From the NCBI GenBank assembly GCA_051439425.1, contig JBFRWD010000056.1, positions 1-21,468 on the forward strand: DNA of 21,468 bases, in the 5' to 3' direction. The notes beneath the pieces were generated by a model, which saw only the letters and a program-made list of their open reading frames with translations, did not search any database and was not told the DNA's origin. How positions within the stretch are numbered: the first letter of the stretch is position 1; each line of letters begins with the position of its first letter. Below are positions 1,601 to 18,129 of this stretch, piece by piece. A program made the translations under genes and the position numbers. Source of the stretch: Synechococcus sp. GTDB lineage: Bacteria; Cyanobacteriota; Cyanobacteriia; Thermostichales; PCC-7336.

Positions 1601-2824
1601 ATGGCCATCGGGCAAACTAGTCTTTTCACTCCACCGTCACCTTTAGCCGAACGCCTGCGTCCTCAGCTGTTAGATGAAGTCATTGGACAAGGCCACTTGC
1701 TCAAACCCGGCCGACCGCTGAGAGCATGGCTGGAGAGGGGGGCTCGCCGTTCCGTTTTACTGTGGGGGCCGCCGGGAGTCGGAAAAACGACAATCGCCCG
1801 CTTAGCATCCAGCTATAACAGTCAGTCCGCCTATCGAGAATTAAACGCAGGCTTGAGTGGGGTCGCTGATATACGCAAGTGCGTTGAGCTGGGACGAGAA
1901 CGTGGCGTACTGCTCCTGGCCGACGAGCTACACCGTTGGAGCCGATCGCAAACAGAATGCCTGCTAGAAGCTGTCGAAAAAGGCTGGATTACCCTGATTG
2001 GAGCCACCACCGAAAACCCATTTGTCTCCATTGAACGAGCCTTGCTGTCCCGCATGCAAGTGTTCGAATTACGAGGACTAGGACCACAAGGACTATCCAA
2101 AGCCTTCGATCGTGTCCTTTCCCACCCAGAAGGCCTTAAGGTCACGTTTGACGATGATGCCAAAGACATCGTGCTGCAAAGTTGCGGCGGAGACATTCGC
2201 AGACTCTACACTCTGCTAGATGCCTGTAGCGAACTAGGCGATCGCATCACCGCCGACATTGCCAATGAAGTCTGTACATCTATATATGTGGGCTGTGACG
2301 ATACCGTCTATTACGAATTGGTCTCCGCCCTCCAAAAAAGTATTCGCGGAAGCAGCCCCCAAGCGGCAGTATTCTACTTGGGGCGCTTGCTGGTCGCCGG
2401 GGCCGATCCCGTGCGGGTGGCTCGCCGAGTCTTAGTCACTGCCAGCGAAGACATTGGCTTGGCCGATCCCCAGGCGCTCACCATAGCCAATTCCGCCTGT
2501 CAAGCTGCAGCAACTCTCGGTATGCCTGAATGCCGCTACGCGCTAGCAGAAGCTGTGCTGTATTTGGCTCATGCTCCCAAGAGCAATCGGACGGCGGTGG
2601 CGATCGAGCGCGCCATGCAAGCTGGTCGCTATCCCCATCCCGTCCCACAGCATCTGAACCGCGATCGCGCCAAAGACTATCGCTATCCCCACGACTATCC
2701 AGGCGCGTATGTCGACCAAAACTACTTTCCTCACACCTTAAAGGAACGCGACTTTTTCGAGCCTTCCCACCGAGGATGGGAAGAGAGATATATCAATTGG
2801 CATCCTGCTGATATCCACGAGTAA
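1601..2824 (+). CDS. rarA: Replication-associated recombination protein A (RarA/MgsA AAA+ ATPase)
   Basis: PLAERLRP, Walker A GPPGVGKT, Walker B LLADELHR, LIGATTENP, SALQKSIRGS, ASEDIGLADPQAL, GMPE, PKSN and YRYPHDY match RarA/MgsA. Confidence 0.93.
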   Translation: MAIGQTSLFTPPSPLAERLRPQLLDEVIGQGHLLKPGRPLRAWLERGARRSVLLWGPPGVGKTTIARLASSYNSQSAYRELNAGLSGVADIRKCVELGRERGVLLLADELHRWSRSQTECLLEAVEKGWITLIGATTENPFVSIERALLSRMQVFELRGLGPQGLSKAFDRVLSHPEGLKVTFDDDAKDIVLQSCGGDIRRLYTLLDACSELGDRITADIANEVCTSIYVGCDDTVYYELVSALQKSIRGSSPQAAVFYLGRLLVAGADPVRVARRVLVTASEDIGLADPQALTIANSACQAAATLGMPECRYALAEAVLYLAHAPKSNRTAVAIERAMQAGRYPHPVPQHLNRDRAKDYRYPHDYPGAYVDQNYFPHTLKERDFFEPSHRGWEERYINWHPADIHE

Positions 2825-2938
2825 GCCGCGACGAATCATAAAATGGCCATTATCCACCTCCTCTTGCGCCACTTTGCTTGTGTGCATTTGCCATTTCCAG
2901 ACAGCGAGTTTCCCTTCGGTAGAATACGTCCTGGCGAA

Positions 2939-2968
2939 TTGACACTCGCTTGAAGAATCGCCTATAAC
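2939..2968 (+). promoter_or_regulatory. Candidate sigma70-type promoter for the 3123-9221 cluster
   Basis: TTGACA (2939-2944), 18-nt spacer, TATAAC (2963-2968), about 155 nt upstream of the 3123 ATG. Sequence match only. Confidence 0.4.
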
Positions 2969-3122
2969 AATGGAGCTATGAAAGACGGAAAAGGTCCGGT
3001 TCGAGCCTCTTCCCCGGACTGGTGAGTCGAATAGATGTTGTATTGGCATATCATTGCCTACACTATGAAGCCTCCCCTTCGACCGTTCTGTCCATTGCAT
3101 CCTCAGTCAAGGGGCTATAGAG

Positions 3123-3740
3123 ATGCTAGTACCCGTCAAATATTTCTGCCGATTAAAGATACTCACTTTGCTGACTGGGGTTGGCTTAATGGGGATGGTG
3201 GCCTTTTTTAATCCTCCAGCGGTTTCTCAGCAAGCCGAGCTCCGTCAACTAGAGGAGTTTCTAGCCCCACCTCCCACCGCATTTCCTGAGCCGCAACAAT
3301 TACCAGCAGCAGCTCCGCTTCCGGCAGTGGTCCCCGAACAGTTCTCTACTCCTGACAATACTGCTGCCCCGGTTCGAAATAATCCGTCCAATCCTCAAGT
3401 CCCTCAAGAACGTCCTTCTCAAGTCAGCAATCCTCGCAACCCTTCTCCCGCTCGCCCTGGAACCGAGCGGGTTGAAAGCTCGAATGTTGCAGTCAGGGCG
3501 ACTAGTATTCCCCGCCTAGAATTAGGACCGGAATATGGAGAGGGGAACTTCATTGTGTTGATGACATACGATGGAGAAGATAGCCTTACACTTGCTCGAG
3601 AGTATTCGGCAGGTGCGTTTGTCAAACAGGTTGAGGGGGATCCGTACATTCAATTGGCGGTATTCGATCAACTAGAATATGCGCGTCACTTGGCGAGTCG
3701 TCTGCGCAACCAAGGGCTGTCAGTACTGGTAGCCAATTAA
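3123..3740 (+). CDS. Secreted Pro-rich protein with a C-terminal cyanobacterial SPOR-like (peptidoglycan-binding) domain
   Basis: Basic then hydrophobic N-terminus ending PAVS/Q (signal peptide), P/N/Q-rich linker, and a C-terminal YIQLAVFDQLEYARHLASRLRNQGLSVLV resembling the SPOR pattern Q-L-G-x-F...A...L...G. Confidence 0.65.
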   Translation: MLVPVKYFCRLKILTLLTGVGLMGMVAFFNPPAVSQQAELRQLEEFLAPPPTAFPEPQQLPAAAPLPAVVPEQFSTPDNTAAPVRNNPSNPQVPQERPSQVSNPRNPSPARPGTERVESSNVAVRATSIPRLELGPEYGEGNFIVLMTYDGEDSLTLAREYSAGAFVKQVEGDPYIQLAVFDQLEYARHLASRLRNQGLSVLVAN

Positions 3741-3979
3741 TAGTTAGGCATACTAGAGCACATCTAGTCCGAATAGGCTTTATGGCATCTTTATTGCACC
3801 ATATTTGCTGTTGCGAGAGACCTGCGTGTCTGTGGGCGGACTTGCCTCCACTGAAACTATTGACATGCAATTTGAGCAAGTTACTGCATGCGAGTCTCAA
3901 GACGGGATAACCTAGTGGTTCACCGCTAAGAATTACATTGGGTTCGGGAGCGACCTAGCAAAATCTGCAACATGCCTCT

Positions 3980-6187
3980 ATGACTGAAATTGGTCAACTG
4001 CTAAAAAGTCGGTATTTGATTTCAAACCTTCTGAGTGGAGGAGGGTTTTCAGTCACTTATCTAGCGAAGGATACTCACCTACCTGATTACCCGGATTGCG
4101 TTGTCAAGCAACTCCGACTGTTAAGCAACGATCTGCAGCAGGTAGAGAAAGTTCGAGAGTTTTTCTTCAACGAAGCCAAAATGTTGAGGAAACTGGGAGC
4201 CATTCACGGTCAGATTCCCGAGCTGCTTGCATACTTTACCGACGAAGACAGCGAGAACTTCTACATCGTTCAAGAACACGTTCCGGGCAAAACACTCAAG
4301 CAAATCCTGGGAACCGACCTCAGGCTGACAGAGCCAGAGGTTATATACATTCTGAAAGAGGCTCTCGAAGTCCTTGAATTTGTCCACTCCTACAATGTTA
4401 TCCACCTCGATATCAAACCCGACAATTTAATTTTGCGAGAGAGTGATTTCAAGATTGCTCTGATCGATTTTGGGTCGGTTAAGCAAGTCCGCACCCAGAT
4501 GGCGACATCCAACAGTCTGACCCCCCAGACGACCACTCTAGGCACGCCCGGATACATGCCATGCGAGCAGTCGTTCGGTCGCCCTAAACTCAGTAGCGAC
4601 TTCTATGCTCTGGGCATGGTTGCAATCCGAGCCCTGACGGGAATTCATCCGAAAGAGTTGGAGGAGGATTTAGCAACGGGTGAAGTGATTTGGAAAGAAA
4701 GGACTCACATCCGGCCCGAACTCAAAACCCTCATCGATCAAATGGTGCGCTACCACTTCAACCAGCGCCCTCAGTCAGCTTCAGATATTTTGATAGAGCT
4801 GGCTAAGCTTTCATCCTTCTATTCCGAAGATGTCACCTGTTGTTCGGCTCGTTTGAAACGGATGGTGGGTGGCAGCGACGAGCCTTCCCAAACCCCAATT
4901 AGCCATGACCCAACTCGGCCTAGCGATGCCATGAGGGCACGTTATGAAATGCCGACCATCGTGGCGTCTGAGCCTGCATCTCTAACAGATGCTCAGCAAG
5001 AATCTCATCAACATGCTGCTGCGTCGTCTCCCTCTTCTTCACCAACTCCTGCACTTTCGCCTACTTCCTCCTCTTCATCGTCCCCTTCGAAGCCCTCCCT
5101 TACTTCCATGCCACCAGGGTTAATCTCGAAGTCCGATCCCCAAGTAACGCGCGCACCATCCACAGCTAGCACACCCCGTTCCCAGCGAGCATCTGCCCAG
5201 CCGGTATCTACTCCGATTCCACAGGACTCCTTAGCCCCTGTGAATGCCTATCCAGATACTATTCTTGTTCCTCCTCAAACAAGAGGAACTGCTCCAGTAA
5301 ATTCTGACACGCCGCCTTCCGGTGCGGCCGATCCGAGGTTTAAGGGAGATCGGTTTACTGACTCGAAGGAGGTGGAATATCTCCCTGACAGCGATAAGAG
5401 CTTGCGCCGTCAGTTCAAGATCAAAGTGGCTCCAGTGTTAGTCGTGACAACGGCAATTGGGTTGGGAATGCTGGCCACTTGGGGGGGAGGCCTCTATCTC
5501 GAACACCAGGCTTACACGGCAGAAGATCGCCAGCAATTGCGTCAAGCTCGTGAGTTGGCAGATAGCGATGTGGATCGGGCGATTGAAATTGCTAGAGGTA
5601 TTCAATCAAATTCTCCGTTCTATCCAGAAGCAGTCGATCTACTTGAAGATTTGCAGGGCCAGCAAGTTCTCGCTCGGGAACGGGAGTTGCTTACTCAGGC
5701 GCGTGACCTATCGGTGACAGATTTGGAGGCCGCACTGACCACTGTTCGCGAAATTCCGTCGTCTTCGCCACTGTATGAAGAGGCTCGTTTGGAGGGGTTG
5801 GAATGGCAGGGACAGCTCTTGGAGCAGGACTTGGCCGGCAGTAGTCAAACGTTGGCTACTCTGGCGCCGCAGATTGAGATTCGCGCTGACGTTCTGTATT
5901 TGCAATATGACGGTTCCTCCGATGAAAAATTGATCGGAGAAGAGGGGATTCGACGGGTTGCGATCGCGACCATGTCTGTCGTGCGCTCCCGCTATACCGA
6001 TTTTGACCAGCTGGTTGCATATCCCGAAGGAGAAAACATACAAGGGATGCTCGATCTCGATCTGTGGACGTCTTACGAGCAGGGTGAAATTAGCCTGGAG
6101 CAGCTCCTGTCACAAATCAAAGTGGGAGACCGTTCCTCTAATACTCCCGACCAAGTAGCAAGCTACACTTCAGGACGCTGGGGATAA
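3980..6187 (+). CDS. Transmembrane Hanks-type Ser/Thr protein kinase (cyanobacterial Spk/Pkn type) with a periplasmic repeat domain
   Basis: LSGGGFSVTY, CVVKQL, EAKML, HLDIKPDN, DFG, GTPGYMPCEQ and SDFYALG. These are followed by an S/P/T-rich linker, one TM helix (VAPVLVVTTAIGLGMLATWGGGLYL, about 5426-5500), two 51-aa helical repeats and a C-terminal domain. Confidence 0.95.
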   Translation: MTEIGQLLKSRYLISNLLSGGGFSVTYLAKDTHLPDYPDCVVKQLRLLSNDLQQVEKVREFFFNEAKMLRKLGAIHGQIPELLAYFTDEDSENFYIVQEHVPGKTLKQILGTDLRLTEPEVIYILKEALEVLEFVHSYNVIHLDIKPDNLILRESDFKIALIDFGSVKQVRTQMATSNSLTPQTTTLGTPGYMPCEQSFGRPKLSSDFYALGMVAIRALTGIHPKELEEDLATGEVIWKERTHIRPELKTLIDQMVRYHFNQRPQSASDILIELAKLSSFYSEDVTCCSARLKRMVGGSDEPSQTPISHDPTRPSDAMRARYEMPTIVASEPASLTDAQQESHQHAAASSPSSSPTPALSPTSSSSSSPSKPSLTSMPPGLISKSDPQVTRAPSTASTPRSQRASAQPVSTPIPQDSLAPVNAYPDTILVPPQTRGTAPVNSDTPPSGAADPRFKGDRFTDSKEVEYLPDSDKSLRRQFKIKVAPVLVVTTAIGLGMLATWGGGLYLEHQAYTAEDRQQLRQARELADSDVDRAIEIARGIQSNSPFYPEAVDLLEDLQGQQVLARERELLTQARDLSVTDLEAALTTVREIPSSSPLYEEARLEGLEWQGQLLEQDLAGSSQTLATLAPQIEIRADVLYLQYDGSSDEKLIGEEGIRRVAIATMSVVRSRYTDFDQLVAYPEGENIQGMLDLDLWTSYEQGEISLEQLLSQIKVGDRSSNTPDQVASYTSGRWG

Positions 6188-6333
6188 GGTCGTATACTAA
6201 CTCCGATACATAAAATATTAGATCGGTGTATAGTTTGGGAACGAAAAAACCACAGCTTCGCCCTCCTTTAGTACGGCATCTGAGGTCATGCCTGTCAGTC
6301 GCGTGCCTTACCACTTGGCCAGTGAAGTGGATT

Positions 6334-7023
6334 ATGGCTCGTTCGCTGGGGCGTTTAGCAGTCTGTAGTTTTTCTGGGGTCACAGTTATCGCATCGCCTG
6401 CTGTTGTTTGGGCACAGCCGGACGAACTTCAGCAATTGGAGGATTTCCTTAGTCCACCGCCGACAGAGTCGCTTCAATTGCAGACTGCTCCAGCTCAGCC
6501 TCCTTACCCCGCTCAATCTTTGCCGGCTCAACCTCTTCCCCCAGCCTCCCCGATTCCTCATGCTATTCCTACAACCTCTGCCGAATCTACGGTGGTTACT
6601 CCTCCTTCTAGGCAGCAGCCCTTACCCAGTCAGCCCCTAGTCCAGCCTCAACTAGCAGTTCTGTCCCTCAATAGCCACAGCCCCGGAACATTAGGTAATC
6701 CTAGACAATTGCACGAGGGGTACTACCAGGATTTGTTTCAGTTTGAGGGGCAAATGGGAGAATTGATTCTGCTCAATTTAATTGGTAGCGACGATCCCAG
6801 AATGGAATTGGACCCTCGCTTGCAGTTAATTGCTCCTGATGGCTCAATCGTGGCTGAGGATGATAACGGTGGATATGACTCTGCCAGGGGAGATGCGCGC
6901 ATTGTTCTCATGCTCCCCGACACAGGCTCTTACACGGTTGTGGTCACAACTGCGGATCCTGACGATCGCGGGCGCTACACCCTAGGATTGTTAGAAGTTG
7001 ACGACCCCAGCCAGATTCAGTGA
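6334..7023 (+). CDS. Secreted Pro/Gln-rich protein with a single C-terminal PPC (pre-peptidase C-terminal) domain
   Basis: ATG 6334 gives a plausible signal peptide (MARSLGRLAVCSFSGVTVIASPAVVWA/Q). The C-terminal DLFQFEGQMGE...LDPRLQLIAPDGSIVAEDDNGG...DARIVLMLPDTGSYTVVVT...GRYTL is a typical PPC signature. The ORF-track start at 6226 is probably too far upstream. Confidence 0.8.
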   Translation: MARSLGRLAVCSFSGVTVIASPAVVWAQPDELQQLEDFLSPPPTESLQLQTAPAQPPYPAQSLPAQPLPPASPIPHAIPTTSAESTVVTPPSRQQPLPSQPLVQPQLAVLSLNSHSPGTLGNPRQLHEGYYQDLFQFEGQMGELILLNLIGSDDPRMELDPRLQLIAPDGSIVAEDDNGGYDSARGDARIVLMLPDTGSYTVVVTTADPDDRGRYTLGLLEVDDPSQIQ

Positions 7024-7319
7024 TGATACGCATGCTGGCAAGTACTGCTATCACATCCTGAGACTGACAATTTTTCCCATTCTCTAGCTCTCATCAGATG
7101 TCGTGTGACCGGAGAGTGGGTTGATACCTTCAATCAACCTCTGATAGTACAAAATGCAGTCACTCAATAGGGGAACAAAACGCACTTCATCGTTTTCACG
7201 TCTCCTATTACACTGGGAAATAACTGGCCACCTTATTTCTCAATCGTGTTGTTACGGATTCTCTGACCGATCGAGATACCGTCAAGAACTCATCACTCTC
7301 TAATTGGTTGAACGGATTT

Positions 7320-9221
7320 ATGGATGCAATCACTCTTGCTTGGACAGAAGCAGGCCAGCGAAAGACACAGACATTCGTCGATACCTACTCGACCAAGACC
7401 CCCGGAACGATTCGAGTCGGGCGAGACCCTGCTCAGTGTGATGTTGTGCTTCCCTCTCTGAGCGCTAGCGATCGCACTGTTTCACGACTTCATGTAGAGA
7501 TTGCGTTCAACCCCACCCATTCATCGTTCTACCTGCGCAACCTCAAGCCGCAAAACCCCGTTCAGGTGGATGGTTCTGCCGTGACGAACGAAGCGGTTCT
7601 GCAAGAGGGCAGCACTATTCGCCTGGGCAAAGTGGAAGTGGAAGTGGCGGCGGTAGCTGCTGTGCCCGCGACGATTTTTGTCTCTGCAAGCGAGCGGCCC
7701 ACACTGGTATATAAGCCTGCCGAAGATACGCACGTGGAGGCTGAACGTTCCGCACAACGACACGAAATTCAATCGCGTAATACGCCTCAAGAGCCTCGCA
7801 ATGGAGTGACTGCTTTCGATCAACCTACCGAACTGGAGGAGCAGGCTGAGGTAAGTCACCAACTTAATGTGACGGAATCAGCAGACGAGCAGGTGTCTGC
7901 TGCGGAAAATGGCACTTCCCCCCCGACTAGTCAATCAATACCGGGTCAATCAGTAACGGGTCAGTCGAGTACGGCTGTAGTGCAGCCAGCTCTTAGCCCA
8001 GTCGATCGCGCACAAGATTTTCTCAACTCTATTCCCAAACCTTCGTTTTCTGTCCAGTCCTTACTCAAACCTGCTCCATTAGCGATTGGTGCGGCTGTTC
8101 TTGCTGCGGTCGGGTTGTTGCAATGGCAGCGTCTCAACACCATCACCAGTACTAAAGCATTTGTCAACAGTCGTATTATTTCGATTACTGCCCCTGTTTC
8201 CGGGGAGTTGCGCCTGCAAAACATCAATTCCGGGCAGTTGGTCCAAGAAGGAGTGCTGCTAGCCAATATTTTTGACCCTCGTAACATCGAGCTACAACGC
8301 ACTCAGCAGCGATTAAAAAATGAACTAGAAAATCTAATCTATCGTCAGCAACAGTTGCAAGTGCAGTTGAATGACCGGCGCGAATCCTTTCAGCGAATTC
8401 AAGATGAAGCTAGTACTCAACAATCCCTCCAGCAAGGCTCGACCGAGTTCTTAGAGGCCGAGCTAGATGATGCCATCGCTACGGCCCGAGAAGCTCAAGC
8501 CAATGTTGTGCAAGTTCGGGATTTGGCAGCTGAAGGGACAATGACCGACCAAGAAGTTGAATTGGCTGAAGCTGCCCGGGATAGTGCTGAGGATGTCGTC
8601 AACCAACTGCGTGAGCAATTGGCCTCAGCGCGACGAGGGGATGAAACCGAACAGCAGTCTTCATCGGTTTCAACTGTTGTCGAAAATCGCAGGTCAGCTC
8701 TTCAAAATGAAGTTGCTAATTTTGAGCAAGTATTAGAAAACTTACAGGCTGAATCCGATGACAAACAACGCCAACTGGATTCCATTACCGACCGGCTTTC
8801 TCGTCAAACGCCAGCCAACATTACCAGTCCCACTGCTGGAGAAATCTGGACGGTAGAATACCAACCCGGACTATCCAACACGGTGGTAGTGTCTGGAGAT
8901 GGCATTGTCGAGTTGGCGCAGTGCGAAGGGTTATGGGTTGAAGCTGTGGTTTCATCCCGCGATGCCACCAATATTTCCGTAGGTGGTGATGCCAGCATCT
9001 TTATTCCCGATGGGTTCCGCCACCAGAAACTTGATGGGGTTGTGCGGGAAATCCGCACTTCGTCCGAGCCTGTAATGGTGAGTGCCGATGAGGTGGCTAT
9101 TTCACCCGAGAATTTGGGGCCTGGAGAGGTGGCAGTCATGGTGGATTTGAAGTCACCTGAAAACTCTGGGAATTTCTGCAATATTGGCCGCACGACTGAA
9201 GTTCGCTTCTCACGCAGTTAG
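7320..9221 (+). CDS. FHA domain fused to a HlyD-like membrane-fusion (periplasmic adaptor) protein
   Basis: N-terminal cyanobacterial FHA (ITLAWTEAG...GTIRVGRDPAQCD...TVSRLHVEI...NPVQVDG...IRLGK), S/T/Q/E-rich linker, TM helix (APLAIGAAVLAAVGLLQW), lipoyl half ITAPVSGEL...GQLVQEG, long coiled coil, second half ITSPTAGEIW, and beta-barrel LWVEAVV...C-NIGRTTEVRF. Start at ATG 7320 is preferred over TTG 7308. Confidence 0.85.
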   Translation: MDAITLAWTEAGQRKTQTFVDTYSTKTPGTIRVGRDPAQCDVVLPSLSASDRTVSRLHVEIAFNPTHSSFYLRNLKPQNPVQVDGSAVTNEAVLQEGSTIRLGKVEVEVAAVAAVPATIFVSASERPTLVYKPAEDTHVEAERSAQRHEIQSRNTPQEPRNGVTAFDQPTELEEQAEVSHQLNVTESADEQVSAAENGTSPPTSQSIPGQSVTGQSSTAVVQPALSPVDRAQDFLNSIPKPSFSVQSLLKPAPLAIGAAVLAAVGLLQWQRLNTITSTKAFVNSRIISITAPVSGELRLQNINSGQLVQEGVLLANIFDPRNIELQRTQQRLKNELENLIYRQQQLQVQLNDRRESFQRIQDEASTQQSLQQGSTEFLEAELDDAIATAREAQANVVQVRDLAAEGTMTDQEVELAEAARDSAEDVVNQLREQLASARRGDETEQQSSSVSTVVENRRSALQNEVANFEQVLENLQAESDDKQRQLDSITDRLSRQTPANITSPTAGEIWTVEYQPGLSNTVVVSGDGIVELAQCEGLWVEAVVSSRDATNISVGGDASIFIPDGFRHQKLDGVVREIRTSSEPVMVSADEVAISPENLGPGEVAVMVDLKSPENSGNFCNIGRTTEVRFSRS

Positions 9222-9341
9222 GCTGGCTGAATTGAGGAGTTACCAAGTTCTGGCATGTGGCTGCTGGTTGAAAAATTCTGCTGGTTACGCGACTCGGCTA
9301 GTTAGGCAACTCAATAGTTCAGGGTTCCATAGAGACTCAAG

Positions 9342-10574
9342 TTAACCAAACTGCTGCTGAAGTTCTTCCGTCGTGATTGTGATTGTGCGCTCTTGGCCAT
9401 TGCGATTGATAAGGAATTCAACCTCTTCACCTACAGCCCGTCCGGAGATTGAGCTTTGAACCTGGGCCGCAGTACTGACAGACTCTCCGTCTAGCGCGAC
9501 AATCACATCCCCCGATCTCAGTCCTGCGGATGCTGCTGGGGAGCGCTCCAGAACATCAATCACCACAACACCTGATTCCAAACTGGGGTCAATTGTCAGG
9601 GAACTGGGGTTGGGAGATCTGGCAATCTCCTCTAGTAATTCGGCGTCAAGGGTGTTCATACGAATACCCACAAAGGAGCGCACGACTCGCCCGGCCGAAA
9701 TGAGCTGATCGATGACGATCTGAGCCTCATTGACTGGGATAGCAAAGCCGATTCCTTCTGCCCCTCGGACGATTGCTGTATTGATACCCACCACTCGACC
9801 ATCAATATCAATCAGCGGGCCACCGGAATTTCCGGGATTGATGGCAGCATCGGTCTGGATGAAGTCAATCCGGCGATCGCCGACACGGATTTCCTGGCTG
9901 GTGCGACCCAGTGCACTGACAATACCTGCCGTGAGACTGTTGCTTAACCCCAGCGGACTACCCAGGGCAATCACCCATTCCCCCGGCCGCAGCAAACCAG
10001 AGTCTCCGAACTCTACAAATGGGAGCGGATTATCGTCTACGTCGAGCTGGATAACGGCGAGGTCTGTTAAGGCATCTCGACCCACAACCGATCCGGTGAA
10101 TTCTCGACCATCGGATAGAACGGCTGCCACCATGTCGGCGTTACCTACCACGTGGGCATTGGTGACAATGGTACCGGTTGCATCAATAAGAAAGCCCGAC
10201 CCAGAGCCCCCAATAAAGTCTTGCCTGGGGTTAGAGAACCTGTTTTGTCCCCGATCGTTAGGGCCAAATTCTTCGAAAAACTGTTGGAGGCGATCGGAAT
10301 TTTGCCCCCTACTATCAGGCACGATGGGCTCAATTTGGACGACGGCGGGCGCAACCTCTTGTGCTGCATCGGCAATGAAATTGCTGCCGTAGGTTCGGCC
10401 AGACTCGTCGGGCTCGTTGTCTAAGTCGAAGACCGGTCCCGAATCAGCCTGAGGTTCCTCTGTCTCGGGGGCAGTCGGTTCGGGTTCCTCGGGAGGTGGA
10501 GAACTACAAGCTGCGATCGCCGCCACCAAGGCGAATGCTAGAGGCTTGACCAACCGAGAGGAGGAAAAAGGCAT
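9342..10574 (-). CDS. HtrA/DegP-family serine protease (trypsin domain + one PDZ), predicted lipoprotein
   Basis: Lipobox IAAC; GSGSGF, TNAHVV (His), TDLAVI (Asp), IQTDAAINPGNSGGPL (Ser); PDZ with SPAASAGLRSGDVI. Confidence 0.95.
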   Translation of the reverse strand: MPFSSSRLVKPLAFALVAAIAACSSPPPEEPEPTAPETEEPQADSGPVFDLDNEPDESGRTYGSNFIADAAQEVAPAVVQIEPIVPDSRGQNSDRLQQFFEEFGPNDRGQNRFSNPRQDFIGGSGSGFLIDATGTIVTNAHVVGNADMVAAVLSDGREFTGSVVGRDALTDLAVIQLDVDDNPLPFVEFGDSGLLRPGEWVIALGSPLGLSNSLTAGIVSALGRTSQEIRVGDRRIDFIQTDAAINPGNSGGPLIDIDGRVVGINTAIVRGAEGIGFAIPVNEAQIVIDQLISAGRVVRSFVGIRMNTLDAELLEEIARSPNPSSLTIDPSLESGVVVIDVLERSPAASAGLRSGDVIVALDGESVSTAAQVQSSISGRAVGEEVEFLINRNGQERTITITTEELQQQFG

Positions 10575-10775: not shown

Positions 10776-11663
10776 TTATCGGTTAATCCATACCGCCATA
10801 CCCTGGAGAAGTCGTAAGGCCCGTTGGCGAGCACTGGGTTGGGTAAGCAGTCCTTGAGACGGACTCAACAGAAAGGCTGTGAAGAAACAGGCAAAAACCA
10901 CCAGCACAATTGCAGCCCCGGAAGGAACATCCAGGTAATAGCTGGCGTACATTCCGGCAATGCTGGCAAAGGCTCCAATTGCCCCTCCCAGCACCATCAT
11001 TTGATGCAGTTCCTTGACCAGGAGGTAGGCCGTCATGGCAGGGCCAACCAACATGGCAATGACCAACAAAATTCCAACCGTTTGCAGGCTGGCCACTACG
11101 GTTAAGGTAATTGCCGTGATGGTTCCAGCGTAGTACCACCGCACGGGCAAACCTGCGGCTTGTGCTCCAACAGGGTCGAGACTATAAAGCAATAGCTCTT
11201 TATAGAACAAAACAGTGGCGATGCAGATGGAGGCAGCGATCGCTGCTGTCAACCACAACTCCGACTGCGTCACCCCCAGAATATTGCCGAACAGCACGTG
11301 AATGAGATCGATCCGATTGGCCCCTGGCAGAACGCTAACTAACGTGACGCCAATTGCTAAAAACGTCGATAGCACTAAGGCCATGACGGTATCGATCTTG
11401 AGTTTGGATTGCGATTCAATCCAGGCCAGTAATAGGGCACTCAAAACACCGGCAACAACGGCTCCTACCGATAGGGGTAGACCGAGAACATAGGCCACTG
11501 GTAAACCCGCCAGCACCGAGTGGGAAATGGCATCTCCTAACATCCCCATTTGGCGAACCAGCATGAAGCTGCCCACAACAGAGCACAGGATGCCTAACAT
11601 GACGCCGATTGCGATCGCCGTCCGCATAAATTCCAGCTCCAGTGGGGCGACGAGCCAATCCAT
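10776..11663 (-). CDS. mntB: Mn/Zn ABC transporter permease
   Basis: ABC-3 family motifs GDAISHSVLAG, HVLFGNILGV, DPVGAQAAGL, VGILLVIAMLVGP and YYLDVPSGAAIVL. Mn specificity is inferred from the promoter motif. Confidence 0.88.
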   Translation of the reverse strand: MDWLVAPLELEFMRTAIAIGVMLGILCSVVGSFMLVRQMGMLGDAISHSVLAGLPVAYVLGLPLSVGAVVAGVLSALLLAWIESQSKLKIDTVMALVLSTFLAIGVTLVSVLPGANRIDLIHVLFGNILGVTQSELWLTAAIAASICIATVLFYKELLLYSLDPVGAQAAGLPVRWYYAGTITAITLTVVASLQTVGILLVIAMLVGPAMTAYLLVKELHQMMVLGGAIGAFASIAGMYASYYLDVPSGAAIVLVVFACFFTAFLLSPSQGLLTQPSARQRALRLLQGMAVWINR

Positions 11664-11713
11664 AATTACCTGCGAAAAGCGACCCAAAATAAAATCAAGA
11701 GTTTACGGAAGTA

Positions 11714-12448
11714 TTACACGGCGGCAGCTTGTAGCGGTTGGCCGTAAGCCCGGGTCAGATTATCGACAGTCATAACGTCTGTCCGAGGACCGATCGCCAC
11801 TAAGTTCTTGTTGAGCAACACCAATCGGTCAAAATGATTCAGACTCTCGCCTAAATCGTGATGAACCACCAGTAGCGTTTTAGCTCGCTCTTTCAGTTCG
11901 CGGAAGATATCGAAAATAATGTCTTCCGTTCTGCGATCGACCCCCGTAAACGGCTCGTCTAGGAAAAAGACATCTGCTTGTTTGGCCAAGGCTCGTGCCA
12001 AAAATACCCGCTGCCGTTGCCCTCCCGATAGAGCGCTAATTGGGCGATCTCGCAGATCCCACACATCGACTCGTTTTAATGCCTGTTCTGCCAACTGAAG
12101 CACTGCTTTTCCCGGTCGCCGAAACAGTCCGGTTTCTACCGTCTGGGCGGTCATGACAAAGTTCCAGACGGAAATAGGGTAATCCCAGTCGATTTGCGAT
12201 TGCTGGGGAACGTATGCCACCCGAGATCGCTGGCGAGTCAAGGGGCGATCTCCTAACAGGACAGTTCCATGGCTAGTCGGAATCAAGCCGAGCATTGCTT
12301 TGAGCAGCGTACTTTTTCCCGCTCCATTTGGCCCCAAAATACCCAGAACTTGACCGCCATCGGCAGTGAAATTCACATCGTCCAGGGCGTGAATACCTCG
12401 GTACTGAACGAACAAGTCTCGCACGGAGAGGCGATCGATATTCAGCAT
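11714..12448 (-). CDS. mntA: Mn/Zn ABC transporter ATP-binding subunit
   Basis: GPNGAGKST, AYVPQ...DWDYP, LSGGQRQRVFLARAL, LDEPFTGVD and HHDL; strong AGGAGG Shine-Dalgarno 7 nt upstream of the ATG. Confidence 0.9.
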   Translation of the reverse strand: MLNIDRLSVRDLFVQYRGIHALDDVNFTADGGQVLGILGPNGAGKSTLLKAMLGLIPTSHGTVLLGDRPLTRQRSRVAYVPQQSQIDWDYPISVWNFVMTAQTVETGLFRRPGKAVLQLAEQALKRVDVWDLRDRPISALSGGQRQRVFLARALAKQADVFFLDEPFTGVDRRTEDIIFDIFRELKERAKTLLVVHHDLGESLNHFDRLVLLNKNLVAIGPRTDVMTVDNLTRAYGQPLQAAAV

Positions 12449-12620
12449 TGCTCTACCTCCTTCTGAGTGGCGTCAGACCGAACTCGGTCGTGTGTGAAGT
12501 CCGAGGAATCTACCTGTTCGGTATATCGAGTTGCTCAAATTCGACACAGCGTGCAATGACTGAAGGAACCTTAAGCCCAGCAGTACTGACAGCAACAGAT
12601 GGTGTCGTAGCCCAGACAAT

Positions 12621-12717
12621 AATGACGAGAAAATGACCCAAAAATGAATCAAATATGAAAACAGCATACCAAACTCACCGTTCATTGTGCAGAATAAAGA
12701 TGAAACGATTATGAAAA
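12621..12717 (+). promoter_or_regulatory. ManR-like direct-repeat operator array in the divergent mntAB/mntC promoter
   Basis: ATGA cores at 12622, 12633, 12644 and 12655 (exact 11-bp period) and at 12700 and 12711. GATGAAACGATTATGAAAA (12699-12717) matches 15/19 of the Synechocystis mntCAB ManR site TATGAAAAGAATATGAGAA as I recall it. Confidence 0.7.
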
Positions 12718-12836
12718 CGTGATTGGTATTGGGTCGACACACTTAGAGACCATATTGGTGTGGCCTGGGCTGCTGCTTCATTTCATTGCACCAATCGAAG
12801 GTTGAGCCTTTGGGCAAGGGATATAGGAAAGGTTTT

Positions 12837-13802
12837 ATGGCATTTGAGTGGCAACGTTTTAAACGCTCCATAGCACTGATTTCTGGGATGGGGGCTGCGG
12901 CAATCGCACTTGGTTGTTCATCTGGAGGAGCAGACAACTCGGCGACAAGCGTAGGTAAACCTTTGGTGGTGGCGTCCTACAGCGTGTTGTGCGACATAAC
13001 GTCTCAGATTGCTGAAGACACAGTTGAGTTGGACTGCCTGATTGATTACGACCAAGATCCGCACACCTATGAAGGGACGCCATCAGACCGACGGGCGATC
13101 GAGCAGGCGGATTTAATCCTCTATGCAGGCATGAACTTTGAACCCTCCATTATCCAGATGGTGAGCGCGAGTTCAAATCCCTCCGCCCAAATTGCCGTTC
13201 ACGACCAGTCGGTGCAAAATCTCATTGAATACAATGCTGACGGGCAGCCGGTGCCAGATCCTCACATTTGGCACGACGTAAACAATGGGCTACGCATGGT
13301 GGAGACCATTCACGATGCATTAACAACGCTTTCTCCTGAGAACTCCGGGGTGTATGCCGAGAATAGCGAAGACTTGCAGGCCCAACTGCGTGAACTAGAT
13401 GCTTGGATAGTCGAACAAATTCAGACCATACCGGAAGCGCAACGACAGTTAGTAACCACCCACGATGCGATGAGTTATTACTCTCGCGCCTACGGTTTGA
13501 CAGTTGCCGGAACGTTGTTGGGACTGTCTCCCGAAGAAGAGCCTACAGCCGCTCGGGTTAGCGAACTGGTCACGAGCGTCCGAGAAATCGGAGTTCCAAC
13601 TCTGTTTGCAGAGCTAACGACCAACGATCGCGTCTTGCGCACCGTGGCGGCAGAAGCTGGTGTGCAGATTTCGGATAATGTTTTGATTGCTGATGGGGTT
13701 GGAGCACAGGGAACTCCTGAAGGCAGCTATCAAGGAATGTTGGTCTATAACACTTGCACGATTGTGGAAGGGTTGGGGGGAGAATGCGAATTAGGCCCGT
13801 AG
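12837..13802 (+). CDS. mntC: Mn/Zn ABC transporter substrate-binding lipoprotein (TroA/PsaA cluster A-I)
   Basis: Lipobox ALGC after ATG 12837 (AGGAAAGG upstream); QDPHTYE, PDPHIWH, VTTHDAMSY and IADG metal-ligand motifs; divergent from the ATPase/permease genes. Confidence 0.85.
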   Translation: MAFEWQRFKRSIALISGMGAAAIALGCSSGGADNSATSVGKPLVVASYSVLCDITSQIAEDTVELDCLIDYDQDPHTYEGTPSDRRAIEQADLILYAGMNFEPSIIQMVSASSNPSAQIAVHDQSVQNLIEYNADGQPVPDPHIWHDVNNGLRMVETIHDALTTLSPENSGVYAENSEDLQAQLRELDAWIVEQIQTIPEAQRQLVTTHDAMSYYSRAYGLTVAGTLLGLSPEEEPTAARVSELVTSVREIGVPTLFAELTTNDRVLRTVAAEAGVQISDNVLIADGVGAQGTPEGSYQGMLVYNTCTIVEGLGGECELGP

Positions 13803-16677: not shown

Positions 16678-18129
16678 CTATGCCACTTCCGACTTTGGCT
16701 GACCCGTCTTTAACTGGGGTCCATTTGCCTGTGGATCGGTCATTGGTGGATCGATGGCCTCTTCCAGCCATACTGTTGGGCTTTGGCTGGGTTGCTGAGG
16801 TAGCTGCAGCATACCAACCTCGGCCAAGCGGACTACGGTGGTGAGAGCCGTCACCAGTTCGGGATCAAACCGAGAGCCACTGAGTGCCTCACATTCCGCC
16901 AATGCATCGTTAAGGGACATGGCTTCGCGATCGCCACGGGGTTGAGTCAGATCTTGGAAAAACGCGACCAAACCGAGAATGCGGGAGCCCAGCGGAATGT
17001 TAGTGCCTTTGAGACTATCTGGCAGACCGCCGCCGTTCCAATACTCCAGTTGATGCTTGACAATCGCAATGACTGACTTCAGCTCGGGCATGGATGAAAG
17101 CAACTGCGCCCCAATCGAACCGCGATCGCGCCAAAACGTAGGGCTACGCTCGTCCAATTCGGACGCGGGGAGAGTAAAAACCTCGGCGGGTGCTTCTGAC
17201 AAACCGATACGAAAGAGTAGACCGGCTAGACGCAAACGGCGCAGCTCAATTGTGGGAATATCTAAAATCTGTCCGATAGTCTCCGAGAGGGCGGAAACTT
17301 GAAGGGATGCAACGGAGTTAAACGGGTCACGCTTGTCCACCCGCTGTGCCATACGCAAAAATGCCTGCAATTTATTGGCCGTAATATTTCGGTTGAGCCG
17401 TTTTGCCTGTCCCTCTAGATCCCATAGCTCGCGGTTTTGACGGTGGGTGGCAACCAGCTGCTCCTGGCTACTTTGCAAGTAGGTGACAATGCGCGAAACC
17501 ACACCACTCAAATCTGCAGGGGGGCAATCGGTACAGGTACCAATGTCTGCCATCTGAGTTTTCAATTGGGCGGCGAGTTCGGGATTGTAGGGTTCAATTC
17601 GAGATATTGCGATCTCTGCTGCTTCGCTGACTAAATCTTGCTCGAAGGTCCAGAGACCGTAAAACTTGCGCTCGACATCTTGGCCAGGCTGCATCCCCTC
17701 CCAGTATTCCGCCGACTCCAGCTCGTGGCACAATACCATCGCTGAATAGTTAGGGGCCAAAATAATGAGATTCCACTCCTCCACCCAGCTATCCGCCGGA
17801 TCTAAGTCGACGAGCGTAACATTATCCAGCTCACCAGTCTGGTGGGTGTGAAATCCGCTATCGGCAACCGCAGCAACGATAACGTGCCGAGATTTTTGAG
17901 CGATCTCTAAATAGCGATCGGCTTCTTGCAGGTACCACTTCCCCCGCTGAAACGTGACCAGCACCAGTGGATTGCTATCATCGCTACCCTCAGAGGTCTG
18001 TAGAATGTGATCCTCTAGAGCATGACAGAGGGCCACCAAAGTATTTTTGAAATAGACGCCAAAGCTGGAGGGTAGACGCTCTTCAGGTAAAGACGCCTTC
18101 AGCTGATTGAGAGTGGACTCCGGACGCAT
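16678..18129 (-). CDS. DICT sensory domain + degenerate HD-GYP-like domain protein
   Basis: N-terminal YFKNTLVALCHALED...TFQRGKWYLQEADRY...EWNLIILAP...LCHEL...RKFYGLWTF is the DICT pattern. The C-terminal RLAGLLFRIG...HQLEYWNGGGLPDSLKGTNIPLGSRIL...GSRFDP is an HD-GYP fold with substituted motifs. Confidence 0.85.
   Translation of the reverse strand: MRPESTLNQLKASLPEERLPSSFGVYFKNTLVALCHALEDHILQTSEGSDDSNPLVLVTFQRGKWYLQEADRYLEIAQKSRHVIVAAVADSGFHTHQTGELDNVTLVDLDPADSWVEEWNLIILAPNYSAMVLCHELESAEYWEGMQPGQDVERKFYGLWTFEQDLVSEAAEIAISRIEPYNPELAAQLKTQMADIGTCTDCPPADLSGVVSRIVTYLQSSQEQLVATHRQNRELWDLEGQAKRLNRNITANKLQAFLRMAQRVDKRDPFNSVASLQVSALSETIGQILDIPTIELRRLRLAGLLFRIGLSEAPAEVFTLPASELDERSPTFWRDRGSIGAQLLSSMPELKSVIAIVKHQLEYWNGGGLPDSLKGTNIPLGSRILGLVAFFQDLTQPRGDREAMSLNDALAECEALSGSRFDPELVTALTTVVRLAEVGMLQLPQQPSQSPTVWLEEAIDPPMTDPQANGPQLKTGQPKSEVA

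Follow-up and report, generated by a model that had tools for sequence, protein, structure and literature searches.

In the 21,468-nucleotide (nt) stretch of Synechococcus sp. DNA analysed here (contig JBFRWD010000056.1 of assembly GCA_051439425.1; hereafter the window), one gene encodes a protein, which we call the FHA-adaptor, that unites a predicted phosphothreonine (pThr) reader in the cytoplasm with a periplasmic domain of the membrane-fusion protein (MFP) type. We argue, at a probability of about 0.6, that this protein is a polysaccharide synthase adaptor of the XcsB/Alg44 class and that it is gated by a kinase/FHA pathway, the kinase in question being encoded on the same strand, two genes upstream. 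The output would then be polysaccharide export, and the arrangement as a whole suggests that kinase signalling controls it.

Domain architecture and fold of the FHA-adaptor

Pfam recognizes an FHA domain (PF00498) at residues 31-103 of the protein, with 48 bits against a cut-off of 20.7, and two HlyD models towards its C-terminus, HlyD_3 (residues 501-597, 44.4 bits against 22.2) and HlyD_D23 (residues 426-579, 34 bits against 30); PilZ gives no Pfam match in it. The AlphaFold2 model of all 633 residues, built on 65 sequences, has a mean pLDDT (predicted local distance difference test) of 80.8, and its FHA part forms a sandwich of 10 strands within residues 3-113 (block pLDDT 74-93). The FHA signature that an earlier note on this DNA had picked out by eye (GR, SxxH and N) has proved sound: G34-R35, S55-R56-x-H58 and N79 are invariant in 10 out of 10 fused homologues and line up with the GS/SRQH/N of a solved FHA structure, 3gqs. 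By sequence and model, the N-terminal part is an FHA domain with canonical pThr-contact residues and a beta-sandwich fold, and is predicted to read pThr.

Directly behind it, the linker opens with an invariant motif, VPxT(118)[IV], and then runs disordered in the model over residues 115-244; its length differs among homologues, and indels that keep the frame are seen in it. It had been described as a Ser/Thr-rich linker of about 130 amino acids (aa); the length is right (132 aa), but the richness is only modest, Ser and Thr together making up 21% of the linker vs. 16.7% of the whole protein. There follows a transmembrane (TM) helix, placed at residues 248-269 by hydropathy and at 251-273 by the model, and beyond it a lipoyl/beta-sandwich domain (residues 274-318 and 499-545), a long alpha-helical hairpin (321-495) and a beta-barrel (546-631). 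The best folds retrieved from the PDB by Foldseek are EmrA (4tko, E=1e-16), EmrAB-TolC, MacA (3fpp, E=1e-13), AcrA and MexA. Hydropathy, model and Foldseek thus agree with the TM helix and complete membrane-fusion architecture read from the letters in the earlier note, and its reservation that the C-terminus might not adopt the MFP fold can be dropped: as modelled, the C-terminal part folds as an MFP behind an N-terminal TM anchor. Also present are the two periplasmic cysteines it had pointed out, C535 in LAQCEGLWV (nt 8922-8924) and C620 in NFCNIGR (nt 9177-9179), both of them invariant in the 10 fused homologues. Two named identities were considered and rejected, TagH of the type VI secretion system (T6SS; TIGR03354, 35.8 bits against a curated cut-off of 120.25) and EmrA/EmrK (TIGR00998, 51.1 bits and E 9e-14 against a curated cut-off of 390.8).

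The fusion is genuine and confined to a small clade

A fusion of this kind could conceivably be an assembly chimera, as had been allowed from the start. A word-indexed search, however, returned 12 proteins, nine of them full length (590-667 aa, 100% coverage, 45-100% identity) and three fragments; the full-length fused proteins were drawn from NCBI, ENA and Logan assemblies, and two of the fused proteins, P0011 and P0012, stand at 45% identity. In addition, a 2578-nt contig from an independent sequencing run (X2) spans window positions 6245-8809 at ~96% identity and has 15 extra nt inserted in frame in the linker, at window position 7938. Because the same fused open reading frame (ORF) recurs in independent assemblies, it is not an assembly chimera. 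The insertion in run X2 also reveals a length polymorphism of the linker between close strains.

Among 41 relatives searched, the fused gene was found in three genomes of the genus, namely that of the window (G000), its sister genome G003 and a congener with a closed genome, G002. Between G000 and G003 conservation is highest in the FHA domain (96% aa identity, dN 0.028, dS 1.16), the TM helix and MFP domain come next (78%, dN 0.14, dS about 2.3 and saturated), and the linker has diverged furthest (49%, dN 0.42, dS saturated). Both folded domains are, by these substitution rates, under purifying selection.

Further afield, HMMER was run exhaustively against 1.84 billion representatives and yielded 749 matches at E<=0.001, and among the best 150 of these both halves were covered only by the query's own cluster and two fragments, the others matching the FHA part or the MFP part alone. 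The metagenome scan yielded 23 loci, all with the FHA part only and none with the fused form, and a scan of genome contigs with the single protein returned the contig of G003 and nothing else. Public annotation calls such proteins only 'HlyD family' or 'FHA domain-containing', and no description of an FHA-HlyD fusion was found in the literature searched, as far as the titles and opening lines of abstracts of the closest matches tell. The FHA-adaptor is limited to a small cyanobacterial clade, most of whose members are uncultured.

The periplasmic half belongs to a synthase-linked adaptor family

The unfused relatives of the MFP half are cyanobacterial as well (Acaryochloris, Leptolyngbya, Gloeomargarita, Nodosilinea) and their annotations say no more than HlyD or efflux adaptor. 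Their gene neighbourhoods are more informative. In four genomes (G033, G029, G009 and G038) an unfused homologue of 25-32% identity lies directly upstream of a GT2 synthase of 722-771 aa, and three of these four synthases carry PilZ. When a profile of 10 sequences was run against 301 genomes of the class, 222 were matched at E<=1e-10, and a BcsA-like synthase lies within the 1.5-kb flank at 27 of the 30 best loci. The remaining three are this window, the sister genome G003 and G136. The last has a tandem arrangement, its synthase gene being preceded by two genes each for adaptors and transporters; this locus (L093, G136:C7) reads, on one strand, adaptor, ammonium transporter, second adaptor, MgtE and GT2-PilZ synthase.

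The phylogeny tells the same story. In a quick IQ-TREE tree of 40 rows, one duplicate row having been dropped and all supports being SH-aLRT values from that quick search, the three FHA-fused proteins form one clade (support 100) nested inside the synthase-adjacent clade (95), and the five other HlyD proteins of G000 fall outside the latter (83). The cysteines behave as a family character, too: of 43 aligned sequences, 39 have both (C..WV and FCxxG), four have neither and none has a single one, and because the pair co-varies in this manner, the alignment argues for a C535-C620 disulfide. This signature was derived in the present analysis and not from the literature. The resemblance of the C...WV/C-x-x-G pattern to synthase-associated adaptors, proposed in the earlier note, turns out to reflect a true signature of the family, and the wider C-terminal likeness to such adaptors is backed by both synteny and tree. 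Homology and synteny place the periplasmic part among the cyanobacterial HlyD-like adaptors of the XcsB type.

A receptor kinase module lies upstream

The gene neighbourhood as first drawn in the earlier note was incomplete, since both a same-strand Hanks Ser/Thr kinase gene upstream and the PPC-like gene that goes with it had been missed. In the window, ORF205, the kinase, the PPC-like gene and, last, the FHA-adaptor gene form a module on one strand (Table 1), and gene order in G003 is the same. In the complete genome of G002, the kinase, PPC and FHA-adaptor genes are followed on the same strand by a gene for a 723-aa GT2-PilZ synthase, with gaps of 18, 231 and 84 nt, and the kinase-PPC-FHA order is conserved among lineages that are 44-46% identical. 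The kinase and PPC genes also keep company with a quite different FHA protein: in G005, of a sister genus, a trypsin-like protease of 680 aa that bears two FHA domains is encoded directly upstream of their orthologues (L094:4373-9341). The partner of the kinase-PPC module is thus the FHA-adaptor in G000, G003 and G002 and the protease-FHA-FHA protein in G005; of the whole module, G001 has retained only ORF205 and the kinase. Because the kinase module is repeatedly linked to FHA proteins, we infer that the neighbouring kinase makes the FHA ligand.

The kinase domain occupies approximately residues 1-280 and has K43, D144 in an HLD motif and the DFG motif. Its S/T/P-rich linker carries the motif PT[IVL][VM]AS[ED], which is kept in four of five orthologous kinase linkers that are otherwise unalignable, and together with T118 in the VPxT[IV] motif of the adaptor this gives two candidate docking sites for the FHA domain. 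The TM helix (residues 480-501, nt 5417-5482) leads to a periplasmic domain of ~230 aa that is modelled at pLDDT 83.9, has no PDB fold match at E<=0.001, and finds a sole match in the protein atlas (0.75), to an unnamed cluster.

Two secreted proteins flank the kinase gene. ORF205 has no match in Pfam or NCBIfam, and its orthologues lie directly upstream of the kinase gene in G003 and G001. The PPC-like protein, the start of which is uncertain (GTG 6226 or ATG 6334), has no Pfam match in the window, but its orthologues in G002, G003 and G005, at 62-76% identity, match PF04151. The two proteins share, after the signal peptide, the motif QLE[ED]FL[AS]PPP (window positions 3249-3278 and 6436-6465); a six-frame scan of the whole genome finds it exactly twice, in these two proteins, and it recurs in the orthologues of G003, G001 and G002. 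It may be, as its sequence hints, a shared docking or sorting peptide.

As for transcriptional or RNA-level control, Rfam gave 0 matches over the whole window, hence no riboswitch in the 297-nt gap before the FHA-adaptor gene, and promoter and terminator scans of positions 2800-9500 gave counts at or below shuffled expectation. Elsewhere in G000, contig C175 bears a second FHA/kinase cluster (L019:3575-9301, minus strand), comprising FHA proteins of 325 and 647 aa and a Ser/Thr kinase of 635 aa; the same set occurs in G001 (L096), and the 325-aa protein shares 38% identity with the first 240 residues of the FHA-adaptor.

A candidate synthase partner and a working model

In what follows, the synthase adjacent to the adaptor in G002 is called type a and the orphan BcsA-like type is called type b. 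When G000 was searched with the G002 type-a synthase, the only hits were an unrelated GT2 and, on contig C180, a BcsA-like gene of 798 aa (42% identity; C180:10491-12887, L022). The C180 gene has the hallmarks D,D,D,QxxRW, is the sole BcsA-like synthase of G000, and is of type b; it has one orthologue in G002, where this is the second synthase and an orphan (52% identity), one in G003 and two in G001. All four genomes of the genus have type b as an orphan, and in three of them (G000, G001 and G002) a divergent DUF4079 gene is its conserved neighbour, with no adaptor gene beside the synthase. In place of the RxxxR motif, type b reads KPxxxEW in five of five sequences, and in place of D/NxSxxG it reads [S/R/A/K]xSExG in the four that are readable there, the G003 copy being cut. 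Both motifs are retained in the five type a/c synthases, and the adaptor-adjacent synthase of G002 has its PilZ domain intact (RxxxR, NxSxxG). Pfam did not detect PilZ in the G000 type-b synthase at E<=0.001 and detected it weakly in two other copies. Judged by these motifs, the C180 synthase is probably blind to cyclic di-GMP (c-di-GMP) and cellulose-synthase-like.

On the adaptor side there is little competition, for the profile scores the window gene at 471 bits and the next protein of G000 at 80 bits; by this profile the window gene is the only XcsB-like adaptor of G000. The next-best HlyD, on contig C126, was considered as a synthase adaptor and rejected, as it sits beside a C39-peptidase ABC exporter. 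A TolC homologue is encoded on contig C85, so that the orphan GT2 synthase and the TolC that the earlier note had thought worth looking for are both in the genome. The partner of the FHA-adaptor in G000 would accordingly be the C180 synthase, together with the C85 TolC homologue. The predicted complex of the C180 synthase (residues 45-645) with the adaptor (246-633) scored 0.00, which is below the mark for a verdict.

The model that we favour can then be put as follows. An adaptor anchored in the inner membrane would link a channel of the outer membrane with a processive GT2 polysaccharide synthase, its cytoplasmic N-terminus having gained an FHA reader of pThr. The C-terminal domain of the kinase would sense an envelope or periplasmic cue, possibly via the two secreted proteins with the docking-like motif, whereupon the kinase would phosphorylate a threonine, candidates being its own juxtamembrane PT[IV][VM]AS[ED], its activation loop, or T118 of the adaptor. 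FHA binding of this pThr would alter either how the adaptor oligomerizes or how it engages synthase and TolC, and polymer export would be gated in consequence.

How this relates to c-di-GMP needs some care. The earlier note had proposed an Alg44 analogue in which c-di-GMP input is replaced by Ser/Thr phosphorylation. The architectural half of that proposal stands, given the order of signalling domain, TM helix and MFP and the existence of EAL and receiver relatives, but replacement claims too much: in G002 the adjacent synthase keeps an intact PilZ, so that phospho-signalling comes on top of c-di-GMP input there and not in its place. One may still speculate that the kinase and FHA-adaptor constitute a c-di-GMP-independent switch of synthase-dependent secretion, the adaptor having left a PilZ-bearing synthase in order to gate the C180 synthase and pThr having taken over the role of c-di-GMP; we hold this extension to be tentative, and false sooner than true.

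Points against the model and alternative explanations

Several observations weigh against an XcsB/Alg44-class adaptor under kinase/FHA control. No synthase gene adjoins the FHA-adaptor gene in this window or in G003, and so the gene is encoded beside an inner-membrane partner in G002 but not here. G000 has no orthologue of the type-a synthase, only type b, and G001, which is 99% complete, has two type-b synthases even though this query turned up no fused gene and no XcsB-like adaptor there; because G001 carries type b without such an adaptor, type b does not strictly need one. Finally, the MFP branch leading to G000 and G003 is long (1.01 vs. 0.16 for G002), which could, as far as a branch length tells, mark a change of partner or function.

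Some of these facts lend themselves to another explanation, namely that in G000 and G003, both of which have lost the synthase adjacency, the adaptor was re-purposed for another inner-membrane partner (an MFS, i.e., major facilitator superfamily, or ABC exporter, EmrA-like) or for some envelope process, with kinase/FHA control kept. The long periplasmic branch fits this explanation, as do the top fold matches, EmrA and MacA, which belong to drug-efflux pumps, and P0020, a 528-aa protein in which a 52%-identical FHA module, VPxT motif included, sits on a different, generic HlyD domain lacking the Cys pair. However, the FHA-adaptor has kept the Cys pair and other family-specific columns, other members of its family are nearly always synthase-linked, and by Pfam no exporter or glycosyltransferase gene adjoins it in the window. 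The earlier note was right on this last point, the nearby ABC genes (10776-13802) encoding an importer of the ZnuABC/ABC-3 type. On balance we consider re-purposing unlikely.

It could also be that the FHA-adaptor really works with a type-a GT2-PilZ synthase of the kind found in G002, which is encoded elsewhere in the organism and is merely absent from the draft assembly. Completeness stands at 96% for G000, with its 182 contigs, and at 85% for G003, and the synthase genes lie on short contigs or at contig ends, C180 being 13.2 kb long and the G003 copy being cut by a contig end. Against this stand the outcome of the search of G000 described above, the same absence in G003, and the fact that in both genomes the gene directly downstream of the FHA-adaptor, on a contiguous contig, is a convergent HtrA protease gene. 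The chances of a synthase having been overlooked in this way seem slim to us.

We give just as little credence to the FHA domain being a phospho-independent scaffold, similar to the FHA-like cytoplasmic domains of YscD/EscD in type III secretion systems, with the kinase unrelated to it. A weak Pfam match to Yop-YscD_cpl in homologues and the lack of any phosphatase gene in the window would agree with this. Against it stand the invariance of the canonical pThr-contact residues, the conservation of the FHA domain beyond any other part of its protein, a kinase-PPC-FHA gene order that persists across lineages of 44-46% identity, and the same kinase module lying beside a different FHA protein in another genus. 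The last possibility, a decaying remnant left behind by the loss of the adjacent synthase, is already disfavoured and most improbable, with the ORF intact in nine full-length homologues, dN far below dS in both folded domains and the linker indel in frame.

Feature coordinates and the remaining neighbourhood

Table 1. Features of the kinase/FHA-adaptor module in window coordinates
Feature	Position	Strand	Characteristics or basis
ORF205, secreted protein with signal peptide, Pro-rich spacer and small C-terminal domain	3123..3740	+	Motif QLEEFLAPPP
Receptor-type Hanks Ser/Thr kinase, 735 aa	3980..6187	+	Pfam Pkinase, 106 bits
PPC-like (pre-peptidase C-terminal type) beta-domain protein, secreted, with signal peptide	6334..7023	+	Motif QLE[ED]FL[AS]PPP
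FHA-adaptor gene	ORF 7308-9221, likely start ATG 7320	+	633 aa
FHA domain, cytoplasmic (residues 1-113)	7320..7658	+	pThr-binding signature G34-R35, S55-x-x-H58, N79 intact
Linker, disordered in the model and hypervariable (residues 114-245)	7659..8054	+	pLDDT <50, alignment
Single TM anchor (residues 251-273)	8070..8138	+	Hydropathy and model
Periplasmic membrane-fusion (adaptor) domain	8139..9221	+	Pfam, model, Foldseek, Cys alignment

Some 7.5 kb downstream of the FHA-adaptor gene, the minus strand encodes a protein with DICT, CHASE6_C and HD_5 (HD-GYP-type) domains (16678-18129), possibly a c-di-GMP phosphodiesterase or sensor; a gene for a pentapeptide-repeat protein adjoins it.

Comparison with known systems

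To our knowledge, c-di-GMP is the post-translational switch of every well-studied exopolysaccharide system that depends on a synthase (cellulose BcsA, alginate Alg44, Pel and poly-N-acetylglucosamine, PNAG). If our reading is true, a pThr-reading adaptor that comes with its own receptor kinase, and in G002 also with its synthase, adds Hanks-kinase signalling as a second kind of input. The closed genome of G002 makes the idea of kinase/FHA control directly testable, which should be of interest to the polysaccharide secretion field.

Among characterised adaptors, the closest known counterpart is XcsB, likewise an adaptor of the HlyD type with an N-terminal TM anchor, and the homologues discussed above are encoded directly upstream of BcsA-PilZ synthases. 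According to a review, HlyD-like genes occur in cyanobacterial bcsA operons (e.g., Synpcc7942_1399/2152 and Npun_F6499), the XcsA-XcsB-TolC tripartite model of cellulose export has been proposed and is still unvalidated, and in Thermosynechococcus the genes for XcsB (Tlr0903) and the synthase are unlinked (PMC12430437); neither 'FHA' nor 'kinase' figures in its text. The adaptor and synthase genes of G000 are unlinked just as these are, and TolC is present. Unlike XcsB, the FHA-adaptor has ~245 extra N-terminal residues (FHA domain and linker) and a Ser/Thr kinase in its operon, a difference that is drawn at the level of architecture. A cytoplasmic domain on an XcsB-type protein implies that the adaptor is regulated, and so offers a handle on the XcsA-XcsB-TolC model.

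Alg44 of Pseudomonas, a PilZ-TM-MFP-like protein, is the co-polymerase of the alginate synthase Alg8. The FHA-adaptor resembles it in its three parts, namely a domain in the cytoplasm that reads a signal, a single TM helix and an MFP-like domain in the periplasm, and in GT2 synthase adjacency, but its signalling domain is FHA (pThr) and not PilZ (c-di-GMP), and its type of partner is BcsA-like and not Alg8. Seemingly closer to the Alg44 systems are two EAL-TM-HlyD fusions of the same adaptor family in G250 and G287, of 757 aa (L091:5230-7503, minus strand) and 706 aa (L092:4780-6900, plus strand), whose genes adjoin those for a PilZ-less GT2 and a PL14 polysaccharide lyase and, in G250, also genes of the UDP-glucose/GDP-mannose dehydrogenase and mannose-6-P isomerase types. 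By gene content these loci look like alginate-like clusters in which the Alg44 analogue has EAL where PilZ would be. The family also includes a receiver-domain-HlyD fusion (P0087, 575 aa). Because P0020 joins the FHA module to a different HlyD domain, FHA modules have been fused to adaptors on at least two occasions; the module has relatives, too, at the N-terminus of PrsW proteases, SH3 proteins and pilin-like proteins. Such a variety of EAL, receiver and FHA versions suggests that synthase-coupled adaptors serve as a platform on which signalling domains can be swapped.

Two further systems deserve comparison. The TolC-dependent tripartite pumps of the EmrA/MacA kind provide the best structural matches (E 1e-16 to 1e-13), but the FHA-adaptor has no adjacent MFS or ABC partner and is set apart by the family Cys pair and by synthase synteny. 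In the PpkA-Fha1/TagH pathway, threonine phosphorylation governs type VI secretion. That pathway shares with the module described here a receptor Hanks kinase with a periplasmic domain and an FHA protein at a trans-envelope secretion machine, and there is a weak TIGR03354 match (E 7.9e-9) as well, although the machine at which the FHA-adaptor would act is a polysaccharide synthase/adaptor and not a T6SS.

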